64,000 nt of DNA from Vermamoeba vermiformis (GCA_045837725.1 JBEWZL010000124.1:248001-312000), one strand, 5' to 3'. Positions 2,529-60,911 are shown, counted from the first letter of the stretch. Translations and numbers: made by a program. Notes: generated by a model from the sequence alone, not told the origin.

Positions 2529-4158
2529 TCAACGATCGACTTTTAATATAGGGATGATTATGGCCACAAAGCTGACTAAAACTGATACAATTATAATAGC
2601 TGAAGCTGTGTAGCGAGGTCGGTCAGGTCTAGAAGACAATTTGGGGCTTGCTGGTTTCGCTTGGGAAGATTCATCGTCTTTGTGCTGTAGATTCCACCTG
2701 CAAAGAAACAAAGTCAATAACTTTGTGATGATCAACCATGCCTTAAGATAAAAACAATTTATGTGTCTTACGTACGTCATTCTCGCCAAAGCATCATCAC
2801 CAATCTCTTGCAACATCTCGTTGAGATTGCCACGAGGATATTGTTTGCACGACACTTCAAAGTACTTCATGTGAAGTTCACTAGCGACCATCTGATTATG
2901 CATTTAATTAGCAAAGTATCTCAAGATAACGAAATTTCACGTCGTCACTCGTTCATTAACCAATGAAGCATGATCAACCATACCTGGGCCTCTTCTTTGG
3001 AGATGGCGCGGTTCTGGTCCATATCGCTCTTCAAACCAACTAAATAAAGCTGCACTTGTGGCATCAACTCACGGAGGTGATGGCACTGCGAGAGCGTTAG
3101 TTCCATGAGCTGGACAAAGCTGGATCTGCTGTCAATAGCAAAGCACAACAAAATCGACTGTGCACCGCGGATATAGGCTGCAGAAATATGTCGAAATCTG
3201 TTGAACTAAAGATCGGTGTTAATCACCATTGAAAATCATATGCATTTTGATCTTTCGCCGGGTAAGGTGACGATGACACTTTGACACTTTGACACGTGTC
3301 ATTATTAAGCTATCCCGCTGACACTTACATAATAGTTGTCCCACTAGTCAATTTTAAATGGTTAGTATCCGTTTTTATATTGTAGCTTTTACGTACGATC
3401 TGCAGCCTAACTGAAATGTCATCGTCGTTCGTAATGTCTTTATGCACCTGGGATCACAATCTGATGAGTTGGTTCGACGAAACTATTCTATTAATGTCAG
3501 CTTACAAAGTCAAGCCATACTTTGTTGGAGCCTATGCTCACATCGTTGCAATATTGGTCATCCTGGATCTAGTTAGTACTGACGAAAAAAATCGTAACTT
3601 ACGATGAGAGTCTGGATTAATGTTGTTTTACCAGCCCCTACCGGACCAAATAAGACCATTTTGATTATGCAAGCATATTCTGGATTGGTCGTTGTAACGG
3701 TAGTGCGTTGTCTTTGTATCCGATCGGAGATCCAGCTGCGTTGGGTTAATTCGAGTAAGACGAATAAAGGCGGGGCATACTATTGTTTAATCTCTTCTTT
3801 AGTTGCTTTTCGATGCGTTGGTCGACTAGTGAAGTACGATATGACGTCTATTTTTGGGTTGGTTATGTTTTTCAAATAAATAAATATTGAATAATTAATT
3901 AAATAAATTGACAGGAGTTTGCAAAAGGTAGACTTTTTCTACGGTAGCAATTAATATTGGCAGAATAGATTTGATTAAATCATTTCTTACTTGATCTAAC
4001 TTACCTTGGTCCCATTTTACGTCATTTATGTTCGCAAGGGATTTTCTGCTTTTAATTTCATTGAAAAACAGCCATGATACGCGCTTGCACGAGATAACGT
4101 CGCGATAATTGGTGACGAAGTTGAGGATGTGGCACCAAATCTCCGTTGGAACGTCCAT
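2529..4158 (-). CDS. F-box / Rab-like GTPase fusion, copy 1, C-terminal TM anchor
   Basis: F-box MDVPTEIWCHILNFVTNYRDVISCKRVS; P-loop GPVGAGKT; LQI-WD; RFRHISAAYIRGA; G4 VGLKSD; G5 FEVSCK; hydrophobic tail ASAIIIVSVLVSFVAIIIPIL. Confidence 0.85.
3274..3301. promoter_or_regulatory. Conserved intronic TGACAC-repeat/palindrome element, candidate splicing enhancer
   Basis: TGACACTTTGACACTTTGACACGTGTCA is identical at 6794-6821 in the homologous intron of copy 3. Confidence 0.5.
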
Positions 4159-4293
4159 TGCAGGTACCGTAGTATATTTATATATCTTATGCATTTAATT
4201 TAATCGAAAAGTACAAAAAAATGAGGAAACGCGGTCGTAAAAGACATTTTCAGGTCATGAAAGAAATTTCGTTGAAATTATCCGATTTTCCGT

Positions 4294-6013
4294 TTACCAT
4301 AAATTAGCGATTGCCACCGCTACTAATACAACAGCAGAGGATATAACCAATGCCAATCCGCTACGAGATTGATTTGATCTCGAGTACGATTCAGATCTTG
4401 ACTTTTTCTTTCGGTTTCTCATTATCTTCATGCAATTTGCTCCATCTGTATTTTAAAGATGAGTATCGATTGTATCAATAAATAAATGTATTTACATCAA
4501 CGTACTAAATTAATTCTCTTACGTCATTCTCGCCAATGCATCTTCACCAATCTCTTGCAACATTTCGTTGAGATTGCCACGAGGATATTGTTTGCACGAC
4601 ACTTCAAAGTACTTCATGTGAAGTTCACTAGCGACCCACTAAATACCAAACTAGCTAAATTTCATGAACGCAAAAGTTGTGTGTACATTCCGGGAAAGGA
4701 TCATAAAAATGCTTGACCGAACGCAGACACTAAAATCATCCATGAAGGAGCTAAGTGCCCGATTGGCTTTTCGTCCCGCTTTGTATTACTCGGATCTGTC
4801 TGTACCTGAGCCTCGTCATATGACACTTCATCAGTTGTCAAATCGTCTTTCAATCCAACGAGGTAAAACTGTTCATGATCCAATCGCATTCGATGTTCAT
4901 AACACAGCGCTAATGTCTCTTCAAGCAATTCAATCAAGCTGGATCTGTCGTTAACGGCGAAACACAACAGAACGACACTAGAACCGCGGAAATATGACGT
5001 GAGAATCAATTTCTTAAACCGCTCGGCCTAATAAAACTTAGATAATGTATAACGAAGGCTAATTTTAGACCTCGTTCAACGTGTCAAATTTGACATTTAA
5101 GTTCGGACCTCAAATGTCAACTTATAACTTACGTGATATGTGTCCCACTAATAAAAAAACATTACTATATATAACTATTATATATACGCGTGGCTTACAA
5201 TTTGAAGCTTCGCTGACACGCCGTCGCTGTTTGTGATGAGTTTTTGGACCTAACAAATGCCGTTAATGAAGTTATTTAAACGCTTGCTAACTTACTATTA
5301 CAAACTCCTCTCGCACTCTAATGCTGCCCAAATATGGCTCGTCTTCGCTGTACCTTCCTTGCTAGAGGTAAAATTTTTAACTGAAGTTCGGATCTAACAA
5401 AAACTTACGGCTATTGTTCGTCTCAACGCAGATTTTCTGACTTTCGAAGGGCCTACGATGACTGATCTTGACTAAAAAGAGATATTCTCCGTCAATATTT
5501 GACTTTCGCTCTTCAGGAGGGCACGAGATCCAACTACAAGGATTGAATTAAACGACTAATCATTTCAATAAGGAAGTGGTTCATACTACTGTTTGATCTC
5601 TTCTTTAGTAGCTCGAGGATAGGTTTTGTTATTGGTAAAATACGCTGCAATCTCTGTTTTAAAGCGGCGAAAGTCAGATCGATTTTCAAATAAAATTAAA
5701 ATAATTCAAATTAAATTAGCAAAACGAATATCATGTATTATAAATTACATTCTTGCCGAATTTATAGTTTAGGAATATTTAAAACGGGCGAATAAGAAAA
5801 ACTTGAAATTGTATTTGCCGACGTACCTTCGTCCAATTGAACGCCTAAAACATTCGAAATAGCTTTCTCGTATTTAATAATACTGTATAACTGTCGAGAT
5901 ATTCGCTTGCAAGATATTAAATCGCGAAAATTGGTTATTAAATTGAGGATGTGGCACCAAATCTCTGTTGGTAATTCGGGAGCGCTTGATTCGTGCTTCG
6001 GGATGCCGTCCAT
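4294..6013 (-). pseudogene. F-box / Rab-like GTPase fusion, copy 2 (frameshifted as given; pseudogene or assembly error)
   Basis: F-box LPTEIWCHILNLI; +1 shift near 5463 before P-loop GPSKVRKS; WDTYH; VGLKDD; FEVSCK; TGA at 4391 precedes an out-of-frame TM tail GLALVISSAVVLVAVAIANLW. Confidence 0.65.
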
Positions 6014-6200
6014 GATCTTACTTCCACTGTTTAATAAATTAATCAATTGAACGTGATTTTGCTAATTTTTGTTGAGGGCTCACAAAAATTTATTTGAACG
6101 AGGTGACGTCTTAGAGGCCTCATTGGAGGTTCTTCCGATCCTGAAAGCAATAGCCGCCAAGTAATAAAGAAAAAAAGGACAAAATCCGTCACGATTTCAT

Positions 6201-7709
6201 TCACACAATGACGCACATTCGTGTCGTGCTTGGTTTTACCACTTCTTCTAGTTCTTGTAGTTTGATCCCTCTACGCCACATTAATAGAAGTGTTAATATA
6301 AGACAGTTAGAAAACAATTAAGGACTTAATTCGATGTTAAGTAAACGTACGTCATTCGTGGCCAATGCATCTTCACCAATCTCTTGCAACATTTCGTTGA
6401 GATTGCCACGAGGATATTGTTTGCACGACACTTCAAAGTACTTCATGTGAAGTTCACCAGCCACCGCCTAAACAGTGAGGTTAAACTTAAGTTTTCATGA
6501 ACGGTGAAAAATGTTCCGTACTTCAGCCTCGTCAACTGACACTGCACGATCTTGCGCCAAATCAGCCTTCAATCCAACGAGATAGAACTCAGGGTGTTCC
6601 ATGACATTTAAGCTGTTAAAACATTGCACGAGTGTTTCTTCGAACAGCTTGATAAAAGTAGATCTGTCGTCGATAGCAAAGCACAACAATACTGCGTTAG
6701 TTCTTTTTAACATAGGTTGACGAGGGAAATACTGAAATCAACTAATATTAGTTCAAGGCTTGAAGACATCAACCAAAACGAAGCTGTCGAAAGTGACACT
6801 TTGACACTTTGACACGTGTCACTCTCAAATTCCATGGCTACTTACCCAGCACGTGTCCCACTGATAAGAAATTTAGAATTATATTACGTTAATCACAGTA
6901 ATGTCATTTGAAACTTACAATTTGAAGGTTTACAGGCACACCGTCTTTGTTCGTTACTCTTCTAACTACCTGGCAATGCTATGTAAACTTCATTGCCGCA
7001 CTTAAATTAAACTTACAAAGTCCGTGCTAGTATCGTAATTGTTGTAACAATCGTACTAATTATGTTAACAGACATTAGTAATTTTTTAGCGGATCCAAAA
7101 AACAAGATTAATCGTACCTGCAGAGTTCGTTTTATCGTCGATTTGCCAACCTTGCATCTATATGGACCCATAATAACTGTTTTGACGAGATACAAATATT
7201 CATCGCCGGATCTGTAGTCGACTAACCGCTTCGTAAGACGGGAGAGCCAACTAAGAGCGCATCAATTACGTCAATAGTTGAAGTTGAATAACAGCTTACA
7301 ATTGCTTGATTTGTCTTTGAGTAGCACAAGGATGCATTGGTCGACTGGCAAAATAGGATGTCACGTCTGTTGATTGAGGTCAGATCCAATTTTCAAATAA
7401 AAAGACGAATTTCCATCCTAATTATTTCATAGATAATTTTTTTAAAACTCGATATAAATTATAATTATGATAATTAATTTAACTCTACAGCTAATCTTGC
7501 AAACTTAATTTCTCGAGAGACTTACTTTGGTCCCATTTCACTCCAAGATACGAAAGAATTATCTTATTTGAAGATTCTCCATAAAATAGTTTCGACACTC
7601 GCTTGCACGAGATGATATCGCGAGGACGAGTCACGAAGTTGAGGATGTGGCACCAAATCTCGTTCGGCAATTCCACTTTACGTTTATTGGGCCAAAGAAA
7701 GTTTAACAT
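6201..7709 (-). CDS. F-box / Rab-like GTPase fusion, copy 3, C-terminal CaaX (CVIV)
   Basis: F-box LPNEIWCHILNFV; P-loop GPYRCKVGKS; WDTCW; VGLKAD; FEVSCK; last exon ends RMCVIV* if one extra base near 6360 is removed. Confidence 0.75.
6794..6821. promoter_or_regulatory. Second copy of the intronic TGACAC element
   Basis: 28/28 identity with 3274-3301. Confidence 0.5.
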
Positions 7710-13961: not shown

Positions 13962-16071
13962 TTAAGGAGTAGGGTTGGCAAGGTTAACAGAGCCGAGACC
14001 GCAAGAAGTGCCGCACGACGGGTAAGGCAAGACATCAGGAACGATGTTGACTTCAGTGGTCACCTTAAACTCAAACTTCTCGCTGCCGTGACGGCGCTCA
14101 GGCACGTCGTAAGTGAACTCGAGGTAGAAGATGCCGTAGCCTTGAGCAGGGGCCTTACGAGTGGCAGTGTAGACGTCGCCGTGAGCAGCAGTGATCTCGG
14201 TAGCGTTCCAGCCCAAGTTTTGGAGGCAAGAAGGACCAGTGGCAGTGATGCAAGAGAACAAACGGAAGTCACGAGCAGTGGCTCGGAGAGTGTTAGCGGA
14301 CCACATGATGACCTTCTTGGGACGAGTGTGAGAAGTGGCAACAATAGCAGCGTTGGCAGTGCGAGAGGTGGTCTTGTGGAGGGACCAGCGGAGGTCACGA
14401 GGGCCACGCAAGTTGTCAGTAACGATGTGAACAAAGGAGTTGACGGACACGAGCACATCAGTGACGTTGAAGCTGGTAGTGAAACCGTGACCAGCACCAG
14501 GCAAGATACGCAAGTACTTCTCGCCGCGGAGGTCGTTGAAGAAGAAGTTGACAGAGTCAGGTTGGAAGAACTCGTCTTGAGAGGCAGTGATGATGTAAGT
14601 GGGCTTAGCAGTGAACCTGTTGTTGAAGATGATGGGATCGATCAAAGCAGCCAAAGCGTCGAACTCGGGCTTGTTGAAGTAGTTCAAGCTACCAGCAAGG
14701 AACTGCAAGATCAAGTTAGGATCAGATCTTAAATGTGTTGACGCTAGTTACTTACGTAATCGGCAAAAGTCCAAGTCCAACTAAATTAACGACAATTAAC
14801 ATAATTAATCAAATAAGTCAGTTATAGATCGGATCTCTGGACTTACCCGCCAAGGGATCTAAAGGCGGAGTTGAGGTTAGGCTTGATGTTGAGGATGGGC
14901 ATGACGATGGGGATGAAGGCCTCGACACGCTTGTCAATACCAGCGGCCAACCAGGTAGTCCAACCTCTCTTGGATGCACCGGACATGATGAAGGATTTAA
15001 CTTGAGGGATCTCAAGATCTTCGGTAAACTCTTGAATAGCATCCCTAGATTATTCAAGATTAGTTTCTATTGACGGAAGTATTCCTGAATAAAGTCGCCA
15101 AGTCTCTCTTTTGACACGTGACGAGCGGAGATTACCGAGATAAATACGTACATAGCAGCAACAGCAGACTTGACTTGAGGGAATTGCAAGATCCAGTCAG
15201 GGTTGGAGGAAGTGTTAGACAAGAAGTGAGTCCAAGTGAAGGCAATGATAGCGTCTTCAGAGCGTTGAGTGTGAGAAGGATCCGAAGGGAAAACGATGGG
15301 TTGGTTAGGAACTTGCTTCAACACTAATCGAATAAATACGTTAATAAATTGCATATACGATACATGAATAATCTAATCTAGCGAGAAAAAGTTACTTACA
15401 AGCTGTTACTGTTTCAGTTCTTCTGCACAAAAAGTCGACGAGAGGATCCATCGTAGTGGGTGGAGGAGAAGTGTTGCTACCGCCATCAACGTGCAAGAAA
15501 GCAGTCTTGGAAGAGATCTACGCGGAAAGAATTTTAAGTTTAATTGTTGCGGCAACGGTCATTCGTCCCATCTGGCTGACACAGATGAGACAAAAAGTGA
15601 ATTACTTACGTTATCAGGCACGCAAATGGTAAGGTAATGCCACCAAACAGGGCGAGAAGACTCTACGGAGCTTAACCAGGTTTGGGAAGTCAAGTTGAGG
15701 ACCTACGAAGGAAAGTTCGAGGTTAGATGACACTTGTCACAAAGCGGAACGAATTAATTTTTATTCGATTTGATTCGGTCGCGCGATTGGTAACGATCGC
15801 AAGCAATAATATAAGCTCTGTATAATCATGTAATAATAACTAAAATGGTGAATCAAAAGATCCACAAAAATCTTTTTTGGCAATTCAGAAATAGTGGACT
15901 TACATAGACAGTGTAAGCATCAGCTCTGACGGAAGCGAGAACGGTGTAGTCGTACGAGTCATCCTCGGTGTAGACGTACTTCTCCAAAGGAGTTCTGTGT
16001 CTGCGGCCAGCGAAAGATCCGCCGAAGCAAGCAATGCAGAGAATCAAAACAAGCAAAGCCTTGGTGTTCAT
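13962..16071 (-). CDS. PqaA-family (PhoPQ-activated / Dictyostelium AprA-like) secreted alpha/beta-hydrolase-fold protein
   Basis: Signal peptide; TPLEKYV, LTSQTWL, WWHYL, QVPNQP, RSEDAIIAFTW, GASKRGWTTWL, DEFFQPD motifs. Confidence 0.88.
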
Positions 16072-16871: not shown

Positions 16872-19800
16872 TTAGGTGAGGTTACCGTTATTAGTAAAGC
16901 CAAAATTGTCAATGTAGTAGTTGTTCGTTTGTCCATCCACCTGTCCAACTTGCACCGACAAAATTGTTGCAGCTTCAGTCAATGCGAATTGGCTCGTGGC
17001 AATATTAAATACGTTCCATTTGCCTGCAGTGACTTGCAATGGGATGCTAGGCAAACTAGAGGTCCAACTGCCAGAGTATAATTGGATGTAAAGACCGGTG
17101 ATGTCGCGATCCGCCCAAAAAGCCAAATGCAAGTAGGGCAATGAAGGGTCGATACTAATGCCTTTAATATCGATGATGAACCATTGGATAGCCACACTCG
17201 CGAATTTCATCGAGGAGGTTTCAGAATTAACGACGGTGTTGTCAATCGAGTAAACTGAAAAAAAAATGTTAGAATAACTAATAATAAATCAAAAATAATT
17301 AATTGTATATTTTCATCGATTAATATAGCAGTTAAAACATTGACGTTGACTTACTTTGACTGACAGAACATCCAGCGCACATTTCATCGCGGAAGACGTA
17401 GAAGTACGTCGATGAAAAAAACGCAAAGTCATCGATGTAAATGTTGTTCGTTTGAGAGTTCTGACCCAACGCCAACGAGACAGTTGTGATCTCGCCAGAG
17501 AGCACGAACTGGGACAACGAAATGGTGAATGTGTTCCACTTGCCAGCCTCCATAGCTTGCAAGAATACAGCAGGAGTAGATGAACTCCAATCTCCGCTGT
17601 AGACTTGGATTTTTCCGCCGGTCAAGGGCAGATCCGAGTAGATGGCAACGCGGATCGAGTCGTACACTGACACGTCTTTAGGACACGCGCGGAAATCAAT
17701 AACAAACCACGTGCTTGTTACACCTGTGTAAAGCAATGAAGTGCTGCCAGCGTAAGCTTGTGCTGAGCTAATCTGATAGCCGGACGCTGTCAAAAAGTCA
17801 GTCTCGTGCCGCGCAGTTTTGACTGTTTTTGCTCTTACCAGCTGGTCGCCAAGCAACAGCAAAGTCATCGCGGAATATAAAGAACTCGTTGAGAGTTTGC
17901 TGGTATCTGTGAGGCAAGCCAGCAACGGTCGGTTGATTGAAGACCGGTGTCGTAGTGGGGCATGCAATATTCACACCAAGAGTTGAAGCAGGTGTTACGA
18001 GCACTGAAACTCCGAGAGGATATCTTCCATTGTTGTCACGACCAGTGATAGCCAAGTTCAAAGGCGGGCGGTAGCCAGTCGAGTCGAGGACGGCTAAGTA
18101 AGCCTTATACAAGCCTACTGGCACCGAGCTGCTCGGAAGGGTGAACGAGTTGGATCCGTAGTACGAGTTCAAATCAGGGAACACGTTGGTAATGTCAATA
18201 ATGCTCGTAGTTTGGTAGGTCGTGCTGTCACTAATAAAGTTGGATCCAGTGCACGATGAAATGTCGTAGACCGAGTTACGAAGGGCGCCACCACATCGTT
18301 CAGTCTCATCGCCAGTGCACGATTGAGCGCACTCTGATTCAGCGGCAGTGCCGTAGGTACCATAACTATTGCCACAATAGCATTGATTGCTTCCTTGCAA
18401 GCCTGCGTACTTGAAGCCTTGATTCTTGCAAGTGTTCACGCAGTCTTCAATAGCCAAAGCCGCGGATGTCATTGATGACCCAGAGATGTCACGTGAGCTG
18501 CCGGAGTCAGCGTAGCATCCCAAATATGACACGCACGTGGGTCTGAGTTCGACAACAGTGCTCCAAGGGTCGTAGATTCGGCTAGTGCCTGTGTTTGACA
18601 TGTTCAGTCCAACGAAGAAGCATTCGTTTTGAGCCACGAGAGTTGACACACGGACGGAGTTGACGTTGGCAATGAATCCCATCATACGTCCGAGCTCGGC
18701 AAGGTCAGCAAGTTGTTGCGAAGAGTAGCCACTGCTCGTGACAGGGATGTTTCCGTTGCCAATAGTTGAGAAGTGGTAGTCACGTGCTTCACGTTGAGCT
18801 TCGGCAAAGTCATACGAACTAGCGGGGGAACCAGATGTGAATTCTGCGAATGAAGGAGCGGTTCTCCATCTATGTTGAGCGATGGGCCACGATCTGAAGT
18901 TGTCCCAGTTGTAAACTTGACTGAAAGTGTCAATGCGAATGCCAATGTTCGATGACCTCTTGATGGCGTAACAGGTGCTAACGTCGTCGTTGATATTGAT
19001 GGTCAAGTACAGATTTGGGAATGCATTGGCAACGATGTCAATGTACGCCTGTTTCGTGGCCGTTGAGGCTTCTTTGTCGTTTGTGCAGACAGACGAAGGA
19101 TGCCACTCGCCGTAGTCGCCGATCAATCCAATATCAATCCAGCCCAGGCGCTTGTCGTTGGAGTACTTGCTCGCCAGAGCAGCAAACAAAGCAGTAACAC
19201 GCTCCTTCATGAACGCGTTCTCCCAGTCCGGAACAAACGTGTCTTTTTGGCCGTTGCCGTCAGCATCGCAGTTGAGAGCGCCGCCTTGATTTTGATAAAT
19301 GTACGTAGGAACACCAATGCCTTTAACCCAAGAGTCCAAAATCATCACCCTAAAGCCGAATTTTCCTCCGTTATTAGCTGCCTTCGTGAGCTCATTGTCG
19401 ATGACAGTGAAGTCGTAGACACCTTGAGAGGTCTCAAGGGTGGCCCAGCTCCATCGATTGTATGAATCTTTGAAGGGTGCAATAGATTGACTGATAACGT
19501 TGTAGTCTGATCCAAGCCAGTTGTAGAATCCTCTAAACGGATTGGCTTGAGTTGTGGTCAAGACTGTCGGACGCACTGTGACCTCATCTTCAACACTTCT
19601 TTTGGCACTTTGTTGAATTCTAACCTCAAAAACTATGCCACATAAGTATCGTTAGTGTCTATCTCAATAGTTTATAAGTATTCTTGTATTATTACCTGAG
19701 CAATCATCGCCAGAAAAACCGTCGAAACACGTGCATCGGCCATTGTTTGTGTTGCAAGTTCCACTCGCGCTGCAGTTATTCGGGCACACGAGGTTGCCGT

Positions 19801-40684: not shown

Positions 40685-42816
40685 TTAAGTTCTGCTGTTC
40701 AATTCAACAACTACTCTGTCTGGCTTGACGAGGGCTTGGCTGCCGCTGGGCCATTGAATTTCTTTCGTTTTGAACTCAAAGTGACGCAACAACGAGGCTA
40801 AGAACACCATTTGTTCGATCAACGAGAATTGATTGCCAATGCTGCCGTAGAAATTAGAATCCATCACGAGCTCTGAGAATTTTTTTTGACGTCTCATGTC
40901 TTACCAAGCACGGCTCTTCAAGGAGAAAGGCAAATAAGCAAATGGGTGTTGTTTCAAGTGATGTTCATCGCCTTCAGTCGACAACCAGTTCTCTTTCAAG
41001 AATCGATCAGGGTTGAATACTTCAGGCTCGTGCCAAAACTCGGGCAGGTGATGGATGGTTTCGTGAGCAAGACCGATGCGGCACTAATGAATAGATTAAT
41101 ACCAAACATATGGTTATGGTACATAGGTCCCGGGCCCTATATAATATAATGCATTATAATCTAATCTACTTACTCCCTTGGGAAGCATCACGCCGTCAAA
41201 TTCGGTGTCTTCAGCGACATATCGCGTGGCAATCAAAGCAGCAGGAGGGTTGATGCGAAGTCCTTCTTTGATGACACACGACAAGTATTGGAGCTAAATA
41301 TAGATCAATAAGAATAACGTGATTCGTTCGTGAAAAATTTTCTTTGTGGATAAACTGTACCTCTTTCAACATCTCGTGCTTAATAGGACGACCTTGAATG
41401 ACTCGTTCGACTTCCTCGCGTGCTTTTTGTTGGACTTGAGGGTAGTTTCCCAAGTAGTAGAATTGCCAGGCTAATGCAGAAGCTGGAAAATTGTTGCAGA
41501 TCAGCACCGCATCCAAAAGTATGTTCGGAAATTTTGCCAAAAGTAGGCAAGATTTTATAAAATTTAATAAGGACTTACCAGTAGTTTCATGCCCAGCCAA
41601 GAAGAAAATGAAAATGTTTGATACGAGGGCTTGCAGATCCATCTTCGGTTCGGCATCCAACATCATATCAACAATATCATAGTGCTCCTTAGTAGGCTTA
41701 GTGCCGAGTCTCTTTTGCTCCATTTTCTCGGAAATAATTCCCTCGCACATGCTGCGCAAGTCTTTGACGGCGTCGTACAATTTGAATTGAAGTTTAAGAC
41801 CAAGTTTCATTTCAAGCTTCATAATATTAATATCAATATAATGCCCAAGCATGAGATAGATTAATTCATGCAAAGTTTTTGCTGGATCGCGTTTAGAAAA
41901 AACTTACCAAACTTAAGATTAAGTTTGTGGGCTTAGAGAAGTAGCTAACAATACGGTTGTACGAGGTAAAATGATCTTCGCCTTCACCCGAAAGAGAATT
42001 GAAGTCATGACCGAACACGGTGTCACCTGAATTAATGCAAAGGTTAAACAGGGTCTCGAGCGACAAATGTGTTCTGAAAATTAGCTTAATATCGTGGCGG
42101 AAATATGGTGGTTGGTAAAATTATGCTTACCGAGTACGTCTAAAGTAAATTTATGCATCCAATCAGTAATCGCTACGTCTTTGTTCGGGAGATTTTTCCA
42201 GATTTGCATTAACTGCTCTGTTTTGTTGTAAAAGGAAGGGACGAATTCCTTAATAGTATCAAAATGGAACGCGGGGTTAATAGCTTTGCGCTGTTGCCTA
42301 GAAGTAATTTAACATCAGCTCGAGATCGTAGAAACTTAAATTACGATCCGTATTTAAGGACGAAAAAGATTGCATTGCTTCTTGAATAATACTTACTTCC
42401 ACTCATCTCCGTTCAATTGAACTAAGTTCTTCGAGAACAGATCCTTCATGGCTTCTGAGATGATTGAAAAATCTGCTTTTGGAAACAACTCCGGATTGGA
42501 TAGTAAAAACTGGAAAATTAGATCAATAAATAAATTAGAAAATTAATAATTAAATAGTAGGGTGCTATCCGCTTACCTTTGCTGACTCGGGATGCGTTGC
42601 GTAGATAAAATCAATCCCCAGAAGTCTGTGGCGAATCCATTTGGACTTTGTCTGCAGAGTTAATTGCAGAATGTCTTTACGCAATGTGTGTCTTCTGGTA
42701 AACGAGGCTAATCCGTCGAATCCAGGGATGTGCGCGACTTTGGGTGATGGCCGCGTCAAATAGAAAGCTGCTAAACCAATCGCCACAATAAATAACGCTA
42801 ATACTTGTATGAACAT
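40685..42816 (-). CDS. Cytochrome P450
   Basis: N-terminal TM, AGHETT, EGLR, PDRF, heme motif PFSLKSRAC-IG (Cys codon split by an intron). Confidence 0.95.
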
Positions 42817-51488: not shown

Positions 51489-53367
51489 ATGGTAAGAAGA
51501 AATGTCATGGTTTTTAGCGCGTTGGCCTGTCTAATAAAAGTTTTATACCCAAATCCGGATTTAGTTCGGGTGCTTTTCCTCCATAAATTTTCATTGAATA
51601 ATAAAAAATTACGGGTTATTTACGTATAATAAAATCAAATTTACGAAGAAAGATTTTTGACGTCAACGAATTAATCTTTATTTTCTGCAGGAAACACCAA
51701 ATAATGCACATAGACTTCTCATTATCAATTCGCAAGGAGACTTCAATATGATACACGAAGGGATTATCAATGTTTTACCCGACTGTTCTTATCAATTAGG
51801 CAACCTGAAGAAACTGGATGTGTACATTACCTTATTCGATGAAGAACGGGGGATAGATACAAAGTGCAATTTGCTCAAGGACAATACCACAATTGAAACA
51901 CTCAAAGTCCAGGCAGTATTCGACACGAACCTAAGTGCGAAGTTTATTGGCGTTTTGCGATCCATGACTCGATTGCGCTCATTGGCCCTTCACATTGCCG
52001 GTATTACAGACTATCCTGCAGAATTATTAGCGAATGAAATATGTGCATGCAAAGGAATCGAAGAGTTGATTATTAAAGACGCAACTTGTTGGACAGAAAC
52101 GGCTCCTGGTCGCGACATTAAGAACCTGCTCAAAGGGTTAGATAAATGCCCAAATCTATCAAAAATCTCATTAGAAGTCCATTCTGACGATGCTATGTTG
52201 GCGTTGGGTGGTTTGATACGATCACTTAAACCATTAAAAGAAGTACACCTCGTATTGAAAGGGCCGTTCAGCGGTGAAGCATTAATGTCGGTCTTTAACA
52301 CGACTATTCAACTATCAGTAGGTATAGAGAGTATAGTTGGTGCGAGCGACGAACATTACGTAAGCATCTTAAACGCACTACAGTCGACTACAAAGTTGAG
52401 AGAGCTGCGTTTGCTAGAAGTTACTTTAGACCAAGAAATGCAGAAAGCAGTGTCTGACGTATTGACGAAATGTCATTTTCTGAGAAATTTGGAGCTTTCT
52501 AGCCCTTCACTACAGATTGTGCATGATAGTTTAATCGATGCGTTGCAAAAGAGAACGTTGCCGCTTGAACAATTCAACTGCTCTTACTTAGCGATGGACA
52601 CCAACTTCAATAGAGCAATAGAATCACTAAGAAACGCAACATTTTATCGGTGTCATTTTAAAGAGCAAGAGTCTTTTTGTGCCGCAGTAGCAGATAACAG
52701 AACGATTGAAACTTTAGCATTGATCGATCTTAAGCTATCGGAAAAACAATGCACAGCGATACAACACCTGCTACGGACAAATTCGACACTGAAAGAGCTC
52801 AATTTAAAAAATCAGCACGTAGCAGCAAAAGGAGCGGTAGATATTTGTCGTGGACTGCAAGCGAACAATTCACTCTTGCGATTTCATATGCCTGGAAATA
52901 TGCTTGGATTTGTAGCGTTCGAAGCGTGCAATGAAATGTTGCAAGTGAATGACACGCTCGAAGAGCTGTCAATCAATTACGTGTTCTCTGATCGCGAGCT
53001 GAAAGAGATTTGCAACGGCTTGAAATTGAACAAGTCTCTGACGTCCCTCCATTTCTACAAAAAACCGGATCTGGACTATGGATCAGTATTCGCGGAACTT
53101 CTCGAGGAAAATCACGTGCTGAGGAGTGTCACTTATGGCGAGATAAAACTGAAGCTGTCAAGTGAACAAATGGACAAATATTTGGAAAGAAATCAAGCAA
53201 TTTGCGAAGCGACGAAAAAGGACATGATTATTTTGTTTTGTAATATTCGAAGAAGCACCGAAGCATTGCAACTATTTCCTGTTGAGATCTGGCTGCAAAT
53301 ATTTAAACCCCTTCGGCTACTTGGCTGTGGATATTATGAAACGGCTAAATTTACATTATTGCAATAA
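51489..53367 (+). CDS. RNI-like leucine-rich-repeat protein with C-terminal F-box-like motif
   Basis: ATG-only first exon, then a long exon from 51691; NSTLKELNL/NNSLLRF/NDTLEEL/NKSLTSL repeats; LQLFPVEIWLQIF near the end. Confidence 0.8.
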
Positions 53368-59212: not shown

Positions 59213-59520
59213 GTCTACGATGTATTAATACTTGTAAAGCCAACTCGGTCAAACCTAAACTCTTTTATTCTTTCGAATTACCAAACTAACAACAGGAGTG
59301 ACAGGCAAGTGGCCACTGTAATAGCAATCGCGTTAGCGGCACTTGAAGTTGTTGCAGAGGGAGTTTGAGCTTTGACGGGCACACTGGTCGGAGCTGTTGG
59401 AACTGCCACAGGAGCCAAAGAGCATGTTTTGCCGTCACCAATGTAACCACTCTTGCACGTGCAAGTGAACAAGAAGTAATCCGCTGCCTGGCACTCCGCA
59501 TTGACGTCACAATCTTGCAC
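58818..59520. repeat. Right arm of the inverted segmental duplication
   Basis: Reverse complement of ~37900-38563. Confidence 0.9.
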
Positions 59521-60911
59521 AGTCGTGACACAGGGATCTTGTGGGATTAACCAAATGTCCGCGAGATAGGGGTTCATGATGGATTGTCCGCCCATCACTA
59601 GTAAGTTTCCCTTATTGTTAATGCCTACTGAACCTCCGGGATAATAACGAGATCCGAATGTGCTGCCTTCAGTGCGGTAGTTGGTGTAAGAATTGTTGAT
59701 CTTACTGCCGTTAGCATCGCCGTAGACGTGCTTCCACAGCTTGCTGGTCGTGTTGAACAACCAAAAGTCGGTAAACCACTTGTCATACTTTGGATTAATT
59801 CCAGTTCCAATCATCAACGTACCGTCTTTGCGGTCAATCAAAACCGTTCCGTCACGTGCCGCGGGATAATTATTAACGTCAAACTCATCGGGGACAGCGA
59901 CAGATCCGGTGGTACTGAACGAAGATTCGTTGCCCCATTCGACACGCCATTCTAAAGTATTGGTGTCAAACGACCACAAGTCACCCCAGTCCAACTGCTC
60001 GTTGAAACCTTCAGGCTGCGAGCCATAGCCACCAAAGATCCATACCCGATCGTTGCTATCAATGTCCGCTCCTGCAGCCCAGCGACCATTCCAATAGTTG
60101 TTTGCGAAGTCAATGGTTTTAAGTGTATTCAACTCGCCCCACATCCAAGTCCACATCATCGAAGTAGTATTGAAGTGCCAAACTGAGTTGAAGGTGATGC
60201 TATAGAAGCCTCCAAGCACCCATAAATTGTTTTTAGAATCTACGACCATCGCGGCACCAGACAGAGAGCCTGGGTAGTTCTCGATCGAAGGGATGCCTTT
60301 TCCGACCGAAACTGCTTCTTTAATTGAGTCGTTGGCTGTAAGGTAGGTGAACTGAAGCGAAGTAGTATTGAATAACCAGAACAAGTTTTTGGGCGCATCG
60401 TCGTTTCCGTAAATCCAGATGTTGTCGTGGCGATCAATAGCAGATGCAGGCCACGTAACTCCACCAATAAAAGCATTAGGATCTTGTATTCCAACTTCAC
60501 CTTTAACACGGTAATTATTTTGATAATCTGATACGCCAGAAACCCAACGGTAAAGATCAGTCTTTGGATCGTAATTCCAAACCTGATTGACCCAATAATT
60601 GCCATAACCGCCGATAATCCATACTAAACCTTTAGAGTCTACTTGAATAATAGGGCCAAAAGCGCGACCACTGGCTCCAATGGTGACGTTAGTCCATTCT
60701 CCTTTTGGTGGACTAGCTGGCGGTTCGTCTGGTTTCAACGATTAATATTTATTAACATATAATAATGTTTAACTTATTATTTAATAATAATAATTTGCTA
60801 AATTTTAACTGTCTTACCTGTGTCTGGATTTAGAGGCGAAAGCCAAATTGGAGAAATAGCCGTACACGAGACAGCAAATAGTGCTATCAACAATACTTTA
60901 TCCGCATACAT
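59278..60911 (-). CDS. Kelch-repeat beta-propeller + EGF surface protein with GPI-like tail
   Basis: Signal peptide MYADKVLLIALFAVSCTA; WIIGGYG/WVLGG/WIFGGYG repeats; EGF CDVNAEC..CTCKSGYIGDGKTC; S/T/P stalk and hydrophobic end. Confidence 0.88.

Follow-up and report, generated by a model that had tools for sequence, protein, structure and literature searches.

In FBXO4, an atypical small-GTPase domain lies behind the F-box and, as described in PMC7086354, acts as the substrate-recognition module of a Skp1-Cul1-F-box (SCF) ligase, not as a switch. Rab40 is a Rab carrying a SOCS box and forms a Cullin5 ligase. It retains its GTPase motifs and its prenylation. TbFRP of Euglenozoa unites a FYVE domain with an F-box and a Ras-like GTPase, a combination that its authors call unique to Euglenozoa (PMC3593210). 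PseudoGTPases such as AAGAB (class i) have kept the fold, have lost residues of the G motifs and bind other proteins; class i is defined, in PMC12490416, by neither hydrolysing nor binding nucleotide. Here we describe three tandem genes at positions 2529-7709, on the minus strand, of a 64-kb stretch of Vermamoeba vermiformis DNA (JBEWZL010000124.1:248001-312000; the whole stretch of 64,000 nucleotides is called the window). Their products consist of an F-box, a linker, a Rab-like G domain and a hydrophobic tail, and each gene encodes the core of the G3 motif on an exon of 15 nucleotides (nt).

Like FBXO4, the window proteins have an F-box followed by a GTPase-like domain; unlike in FBXO4, this domain is clearly Rab-like by sequence, would be held by a membrane anchor, and occurs in canonical form, with intact G motifs, among its relatives. 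With Rab40 they share the joining of a Rab domain and a cullin-adaptor motif in one protein; this motif is a C-terminal SOCS box in Rab40 and an N-terminal F-box (Cul1 type) in the window proteins. TbFRP has a FYVE domain for binding membranes through phosphatidylinositol 3-phosphate and no transmembrane tail, whereas the window proteins have a tail. By analogy, the three genes would work like FBXO4, Rab40 and TbFRP, yet would belong to none of these systems. In a literature search, TbFRP was the only published fusion of an F-box with a small GTPase that was found, and no published case of a G3 micro-exon in a small GTPase was found. The genes belong to a lineage-restricted family with an N-terminal F-box, a linker of about 60 residues and a Rab-like G domain. 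Three things are new: an F-box joined to a Rab-like pseudo-GTPase with a predicted transmembrane tail, a gradation among members that leads from canonical to degenerate ones, and a micro-exon at G3. We give a probability of roughly 55% to the reading that these proteins are membrane-anchored SCF substrate receptors which use a pseudo-GTPase domain as their binding module.

Three tandem genes with a 15-nt exon

Gene models were derived from three-frame translation and the sequence itself, with every border checked. The three paralogs are arranged head to tail. Each consists of nine exons, the introns begin with GT and end with AG in all cases (24 of 24), and intron length ranges from 34 to 173 nt. 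The features of the array are as follows (ORF, open reading frame).

2529-4158, minus strand: copy 1, a clean 329-amino-acid ORF with F-box, linker, Rab-like domain and hydrophobic tail
4158-4005, 3847-3781, 3735-3603, 3568-3506 and 3447-3397, minus strand: copy 1, exons 1 to 5
3343-3329, 3205-2984, 2891-2776 and 2697-2529, minus strand: copy 1, exons 6 to 9
about 4297-6013, minus strand: copy 2, with the same nine-exon layout, out of frame in the assembly
6013-5827, 5653-5587, 5533-5409, 5361-5302 and 5249-5199, minus strand: copy 2, exons 1 to 5
5147-5133, 5027-4806, 4638-4523 and 4445 onwards, minus strand: copy 2, exons 6 to 9
6043-7709, minus strand: copy 3, a 347-amino-acid ORF
7709-7526, 7366-7300, 7250-7118, 7055-7017 and 6969-6919, minus strand: copy 3, exons 1 to 5
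6860-6846, 6731-6522, 6467-6351 and 6270-6043, minus strand: copy 3, exons 6 to 9
7526-7709 (copy 3, ELPNEIWCHILNFV...), 5827-6013 (copy 2) and 4005-4158 (copy 1), minus strand: exon 1, F-box (Pfam)
3603-3735 (copy 1), 5409-5533 (copy 2) and 7118-7250 (copy 3), minus strand: exon 3, linker and P-loop
3506-3568, minus strand: exon 4 of copy 1, switch-I region (IQDDQYCNDVSIGSNKVWLDF, without Thr)
5302-5361 (copy 2, without Thr) and 7017-7055 (copy 3, 13 amino acids, YDTSTDF), minus strand: counterparts of exon 4
3329-3343, minus strand: micro-exon of copy 1, encoding WDNYY at the G3 position (model and RNA contigs)
5133-5147, minus strand: micro-exon of copy 2, encoding WDTYH (model and RNA contigs)
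6846-6860, minus strand: micro-exon of copy 3, encoding WDTCW (model and RNA contigs)
3270-3301 (copy 1), 5090-5120 (copy 2) and 6787-6834 (copy 3), minus strand: palindromic TGACA/TGTCA motif with hairpin
2984-3205 (copy 1, LKSD), 4806-5027 (copy 2) and 6522-6731 (copy 3), minus strand: exon 7, switch II to G4 (Pfam Ras)
2776-2891 (copy 1), 4523-4638 (copy 2) and 6351-6467 (copy 3), minus strand: exon 8, G5 (SCK) and last helix
2529-2697, minus strand: exon 9 of copy 1, putative tail anchor (a polar stretch, AIIIVSVLVSFVAIIIPIL, KVDR and a stop; no Cys motif)
6043-6270, minus strand: tail of copy 3
4297-4443, minus strand: predicted transmembrane segment of copy 2, in the other frame

On the plus strand, a multi-exon gene at 361-2433 converges on copy 1, with some 100 nt between the two 3' ends. 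The N-terminus of this gene's product resembles, by eye, a helical domain of the MIT type.

The original prediction, made from the sequence alone, placed frame-preserving micro-exons encoding WDNYY, WDTYH and WDTCW in the three copies, and the gene models, a pattern scan and RNA contigs all bear this out. Indeed, the sixth exon of each copy is 15 nt long and in phase 0 on both sides, with AG before it and GTAAGT after it. The pattern AG-TGGGAY-N9-GT occurs three times on the two strands of the window, and all three occurrences are the micro-exons; in 200 shuffles, the same pattern was found 0.13 times on average and at most once.

Transcripts were sought in two pairs of sequencing runs. X5 and X6 are contigs from a closely related organism, which had been guessed to be RNA from the run index; the contigs are spliced, and are therefore RNA-derived. 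X14 and X16 are raw reads bearing the species label of the window. In X5 and X6, the 15 letters of the micro-exon stand between the joints 3205|3397, 5027|5199 and 6732|6919. The first joint, with the micro-exon of copy 1, was recovered at a depth of 20.1 in X5 and 5.2 in X6. The second, with that of copy 2, had a depth of 8 in X5 and was accompanied by matching loose ends in X6, and the third, with that of copy 3, had a depth of 11.1 in X6 and matching loose ends in X5. Compared with the window, the micro-exon letters of copies 2 and 3 are identical and those of copy 1 show one synonymous difference (TAT to TAC). The micro-exon is thus transcribed and included in X5 and X6.

In copy 1, the contigs of these two runs cover the joints from exon 1 to exon 7 (E1-E7), with no RNA coverage of E7-E8 or E8-E9 in X5 or X6; in copies 2 and 3 they cover E1-E8. 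The micro-exon had also been thought skippable. Every X5 and X6 contig at the three joints includes it, and no joint that skips it was found among the joints listed, which are all but six (3% threshold; contigs drop rare forms). A different splicing that restores WDTAGQ had been considered as well: no alternative exon encoding DTAG or AGQ was found in the E5-E7 intervals, in any frame.

Domains, G motifs and relatives

The Pfam F-box-like family (PF12937) matched exon 1 of copy 3 with 30.6 bits and that of copy 2 with 28.2 bits (cut-off 24.3), and the F-box core P-EIWCHILN is invariant in the three copies, copy 1 included. Exon 7 matched Pfam Ras (PF00071) in copies 1 to 3 with 49.0, 27.7 and 30.4 bits (cut-off 21.6; E-values of 6.4e-13, 2.3e-6 and 3.4e-7), over profile positions 59-128 in copies 1 and 2 and 68-128 in copy 3, from residue 7 of the exon. 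Exon 3 gave weak matches to P-loop families in copy 1 only, and no match to FYVE was found by Pfam in exon 1 or exon 3. A profile of exon 7 matched 48 sequences of the PDB at E<=1e-3, led by Rab39B, Rab1a, Sec4 and Rab9; the best Rabs, Rab43 among them, reached E of about 1e-5.

No C-terminal Cys prenylation motif was found in the tails, which end in ...PILKVDR and ...KITFN, and no Pfam family, SOCS box included, matched the three tails at E<=1. Kyte-Doolittle hydropathy over 19 residues peaked at 3.11 in copy 1, at 2.58 in the other frame of copy 2 and at 1.7 in copy 3.

The G motifs have changed to different extents. In G1, copy 1 (GPVGAGKT) agrees with the consensus GxxxxGK[S/T], from which copy 2 (GPSKVRKS) and copy 3 (GPYRCKVGKS) depart. 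Exon 4 of copies 1 and 2 is without the switch-I Thr of G2; in copy 3, the shortened YDTSTDF contains a Thr whose register is uncertain. In G3, the sequences are WDNYY-F, WDTYH-A and WDTCW-Y in copies 1 to 3. The Asp is kept in all three, the position of Gly60 is taken by Tyr, His and Trp, and that of Gln61 by Phe, Ala and Tyr. This assignment rests on the alignment of exon 7: its second residue corresponds to position 59 of the Ras profile (Pfam, copies 1 and 2), where Rab structures place ERF, and the first residue (F, A or Y) therefore replaces the catalytic Gln. The amide of Gly60 contacts the gamma-phosphate of the nucleotide. In G4, the Asn of NKxD has become Leu, with Lys and Asp kept (LKSD, LKDD and LKAD), and G5 is SCK in all three copies.

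These motifs bear on most of what had been claimed for the G domains. The DxxGQ motif was described as lost; its Gly and Gln are gone in all copies, and its Asp is retained. Copy 1 indeed has no switch-I Thr, a loss that exon 4 of copy 2 shares. The change from GK to RK in copy 2 is found in GPSKVRKS, in another frame that opens up only when base 5465 is left out, and the two-residue insertion in the P-loop of copy 3 (GPYRCKVGKS) is confirmed. For a conserved G4/G5 region, the claim holds for SCK and for the Lys and Asp of G4, and fails for the Asn. A pseudo-GTPase state of the three G domains is a reasonable reading of these losses within a recognisable Ras fold, at the level of motifs only. 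Copy 1 may belong to a pseudoGTPase class other than that of copies 2 and 3.

Relatives were found with the profile of exon 7 from the three copies, which gave 278 matches at E<=1e-3 among 1.84 billion representatives. P0017 (292 amino acids) and P0026 (301 amino acids), two uncharacterised metagenome proteins, can be aligned with the window proteins over the full length, F-box included, share the MKYFE.S.KQ block with them and match Pfam Ras at E of 2e-35 and 1e-30. In both, GxxxxGKS is intact, G3 reads WDTAGQ or WDTAGA, and the C-terminus is a CaaX-like CNVM or CSVM; the C-terminal ends seen among the relatives are CNVM, CSVM, CLIQ and CSIL. Since relatives of this layout have retained WDTAGQ or WDTAGA together with a CaaX end, the window copies are the derived ones. 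Judged from their motifs, the other members of the F-box/Rab family look like working, prenylated GTPases.

Further relatives fill in the series. P0089 combines F-box-like and Ras matches with WDTAGQ and GLKSD; together with P0104 and P0044 it has LKxD and is otherwise canonical. P0029 carries WDTPDC, which is degenerate in a different manner from the window copies. Short ORF fragments of other relatives begin at (Q)QERF or QHEKY. In one of them, P0027, LDTAG is followed by 16 odd residues and QHEKY, which may reflect an intron behind the Gly codon, the arrangement found in the three copies. P0036 repeats the exon-7 stretch of P0026, and the way it reads on after EAE hints at an intron placed where the three copies have one. 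The sole source name among these relatives is 'small GTP-binding protein'.

Against the PDB, P0017 matched Rab30, Rab43 and Rab10 best (E of about 1e-26). Its AlphaFold model has a mean predicted local distance difference test score (pLDDT) of 66, with about 55 in the N-terminal half, and the top Foldseek matches of this model were all Rabs. A homolog search with P0017 returned 1269 matches at E<=1e-10; among the 120 listed, all others cover 52-77% of the query, corresponding to the GTPase part, and no name is informative. A word-based search with exon 7 of copy 1, against longer proteins only, gave no match. Seven metagenome loci retrieved with the exon-7 profile were rejected as family members; tblastn identified them as Rho-like or divergent GTPases without an F-box.

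Candidate roles of the encoded proteins

If the proteins are SCF substrate receptors, the F-box would dock on Skp1-Cul1 and the hydrophobic tail would fix the protein on a membrane, replacing the prenylation motif of the relatives. The switch-less Rab-like domain would then be a constitutive protein-binding module, and membrane-associated partners would be presented for ubiquitylation, as with FBXO4 and Rab40. The original prediction proposed a recognition site on the switch surface; the N-terminal F-box, which it did not mention, lends this idea support. Should this reading be correct, the genes would represent a third independent wiring of a small-GTPase fold to a cullin ligase, beside FBXO4 and Rab40, and the series from WDTAGQ/CaaX members to switch-dead, transmembrane forms could show a switch becoming a fixed recognition module.

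Several results weigh against the substrate-receptor reading. The F-box of copy 1 scores 20.5 bits, under the cut-off of 24.3; those of P0017 and P0026 are just below the cut-off, and no F-box chain was found when the F-box profile was compared with the PDB. In the Atlas, the nearest neighbour of P0017 is Rab40 (0.80-0.81), with FBXO4 clusters among the nearest neighbours (0.78-0.80), values to be taken as leads only. An FBXO4 chain was absent from the best 60 of the 904 PDB sequence matches of P0017, and also from the Foldseek matches listed (at least 500), the N-terminal half of the model used having a pLDDT of about 55. The hydrophobic stretch of copy 3 is marginal, and the joints listed do not include the E8-E9 joint that would confirm the exon 9 model of this copy. 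The assembly breaks the frame of copy 2 at two places. Divergence of the switch exons is roughly on a par with that of the linker, the P-loop and the exon-7 region. At the three genes, X14 and X16 gave 10 and 31 partial reads, with 95-99% likeness. Finally, copy 1 keeps a canonical P-loop, xKxD and SCK, and may therefore bind GTP as a locked switch instead of being a nucleotide-free module.

This last point leads to an alternative that we regard as unlikely, and which fares best among the rivals. In it, copy 1 at least would bind GTP and be unable to hydrolyse it, forming a constitutively 'on' membrane Rab-like protein whose F-box governs its own turnover and not that of substrates. The authors of the TbFRP study tie the F-box to the protein's own rapid turnover (PMC3593210). 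The intact P-loop of copy 1, with its LKSD and SCK, would agree with this, and the relatives with LKxD (P0089, P0104 and P0044) show that this form of G4 occurs in otherwise canonical GTPases. However, the P-loop is disrupted by Arg in place of the second Gly in copy 2 and by the insert of two residues in copy 3, bulky Tyr, His or Trp occupy the position of Gly60, and the switch-I Thr is missing from copies 1 and 2.

An extension of the substrate-receptor reading, which we consider improbable in its full form, is that the membrane-anchored proteins, as nucleotide-independent Rab look-alikes with differing switch surfaces, act as Rab baits. They would capture readers of Rab switches and pass them to SCF for destruction; the start of switch II would be preserved as a 15-nt module spliced in separately, with inclusion depending on the intronic hairpin. 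Targets would be effectors, GTPase-activating proteins, guanine nucleotide exchange factors, or Rab-targeting effectors of intracellular bacteria.

It is comparably improbable that the motif losses mark the start of pseudogenisation in a redundant array without selected function. The two frame breaks of copy 2 would agree with such decay. Its exon 3 has 125 nt, as against 133 nt in copies 1 and 3, which leads to a stop in exon 4. The first break is an extra base at 5465 (minus strand) in this exon, and the base is left out in the RNA contigs at full depth (12.9 of 12.9 in X5, 20 of 20 in X6). Without it the frame is restored, reading ...LVKTVIVGPSKVRKS..., which matches LVKTVIMGP of copy 3. 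The second break is located in exon 9 (about 4392-4410): read on from exon 8, the sequence runs into a stop after WSKLHEDNEKPKEKVKI, and the other frame yields a typical tail-anchor sequence (...GLALVISSAVVLVAVAIANLW) followed by a stop. The breaks may be either assembly errors or the mark of a strain-specific pseudogene.

Decay would also agree with the absence of clear reads of the three genes from the raw runs X14 and X16. The partial reads of these runs match exon 8 and the intron motif and have foreign flanks; they therefore come from other loci, and none is clearly from the three genes. The genes look either silent in these samples, or the species label does not match the strain of the window.

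On the other side, the RNA of the related organism contains correctly spliced transcripts of all three genes, and there copy 2 has an exon 3 that is in frame; in the window, the ORFs of copies 1 and 3 (329 and 347 amino acids) are intact across nine exons despite an old duplication. The proportion of synonymous differences (pS) between paralogs is 0.45-1.09 in all exons but exon 8, one pair over the five micro-exon codons excepted. Synonymous sites are thus saturated between the copies, so that the duplication is old and regional ratios of non-synonymous to synonymous divergence (dN/dS) between paralogs are not estimable. Between the window and the related organism, 17 differences were assessed, 15 of them exonic, of which 9 are synonymous and 6 non-synonymous; the 17 are 16 tabulated differences and the micro-exon letter, and form a partial list (for exon 3 of copy 1, three of eight are listed). 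Among the listed differences, this ratio points to purifying selection and constraint. Conservation is also seen in the W and D that the micro-exon encodes, in the core of the F-box and in exon 8.

Amino-acid identity between copies is 46-64% in exon 1, 30-47% in exon 3, 14-62% in exon 4, 44-49% in exon 7 and 85-95% in exon 8. The switch surface had been called diversifying; with pS saturated and the switch exons no more diverged than most others, this claim is not sustained. Exon 8 (...ELHMKYFEVSCKQYPRGNLNEMLQEIG...) stands apart, with 87-95% nucleotide identity among the copies, a pS of 0.14-0.24 and a near-identity that ends at the exon borders. Gene conversion, restricted to the only stretch that has stayed similar enough for it, may account for this, or else a constraint at the RNA level. 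Raw reads of X14 and X16 match exon 8 with foreign flanks, and therefore further members of the family elsewhere share this exon.

Micro-exon recognition and neighbouring genes

The micro-exons have the donor GTAAGT in 3 of 3 cases, compared with 6 of 21 for the other exons. The intron 5' of the micro-exon has 53, 51 and 58 nt in copies 1 to 3, and the intron 3' of it, which is the second longest in each gene, has 123, 105 and 114 nt. The TGACA/TGTCA element of this downstream intron begins about 12-30 nt 3' of the micro-exon donor. The sequence GTGTCAAAGTGTCA has four matches in the window, confined to the introns of copies 1 and 3, compared with 0.69 expected, and the 22-nt run GTGTCAAAGTGTCAAAGTGTCA is identical in copies 1 and 3 and occurs nowhere else in the window. 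In copy 2, the element forms a predicted 12-bp hairpin. The fold z-scores of the three whole introns were -1.76, -1.82 and -4.57.

Recognition of the micro-exon is probably helped by the perfect GTAAGT donor together with the hairpin element in the long downstream intron; a role of this element in exon definition is put forward purely as a hypothesis. The array offers a clean, RNA-verified example of a catalytic motif placed on an exon of five codons, beside which the intron supplies a candidate helper element. That the exon would instead be a regulated cassette, skipped under control of the hairpin to give isoforms without the junction of strand 3 and switch II, is the least probable of the explanations considered: its 15 nt in phase 0 and the structured element kept in the downstream intron of all three copies would allow it, but the contigs at the three joints all include the exon, no skipped joint appears among those listed at the 3% threshold, and skipping would remove the conserved Trp-Asp with which strand 3 ends.

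The TGACA/TGTCA motif was also seen inside another, well-covered transcript of X16 (16 reads with common flanks; loose ends).

Elsewhere in the window, a single-exon leucine-rich-repeat ORF of 568 amino acids (51661-53364, plus strand) has an end, ...LQLFPVEIWLQIFKPL..., that by eye resembles the F-box core of the three genes. At 17801-19651 (minus strand) lies an intronless ORF of 617 amino acids with a WSC domain, 97% identical to one database protein. The clusters nearest to its N-terminal part are bacterial and DUF4832/GH42-like (Atlas 0.87, a lead only), and the gene may be one of bacterial type that sits within a eukaryotic genome. An ORF at 13965-14747 (minus strand) matches Pfam PhoPQ_related, a mostly bacterial family, at E of 1.8e-27, and the G+C content of this stretch (0.46) is above that of the rest of the window. 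Ordinary neighbours are an ORF with Kelch repeats, an EGF domain and a hydrophobic C-terminal end (59281-60741, minus strand) and a cytochrome P450 exon (41214-41903, minus strand).

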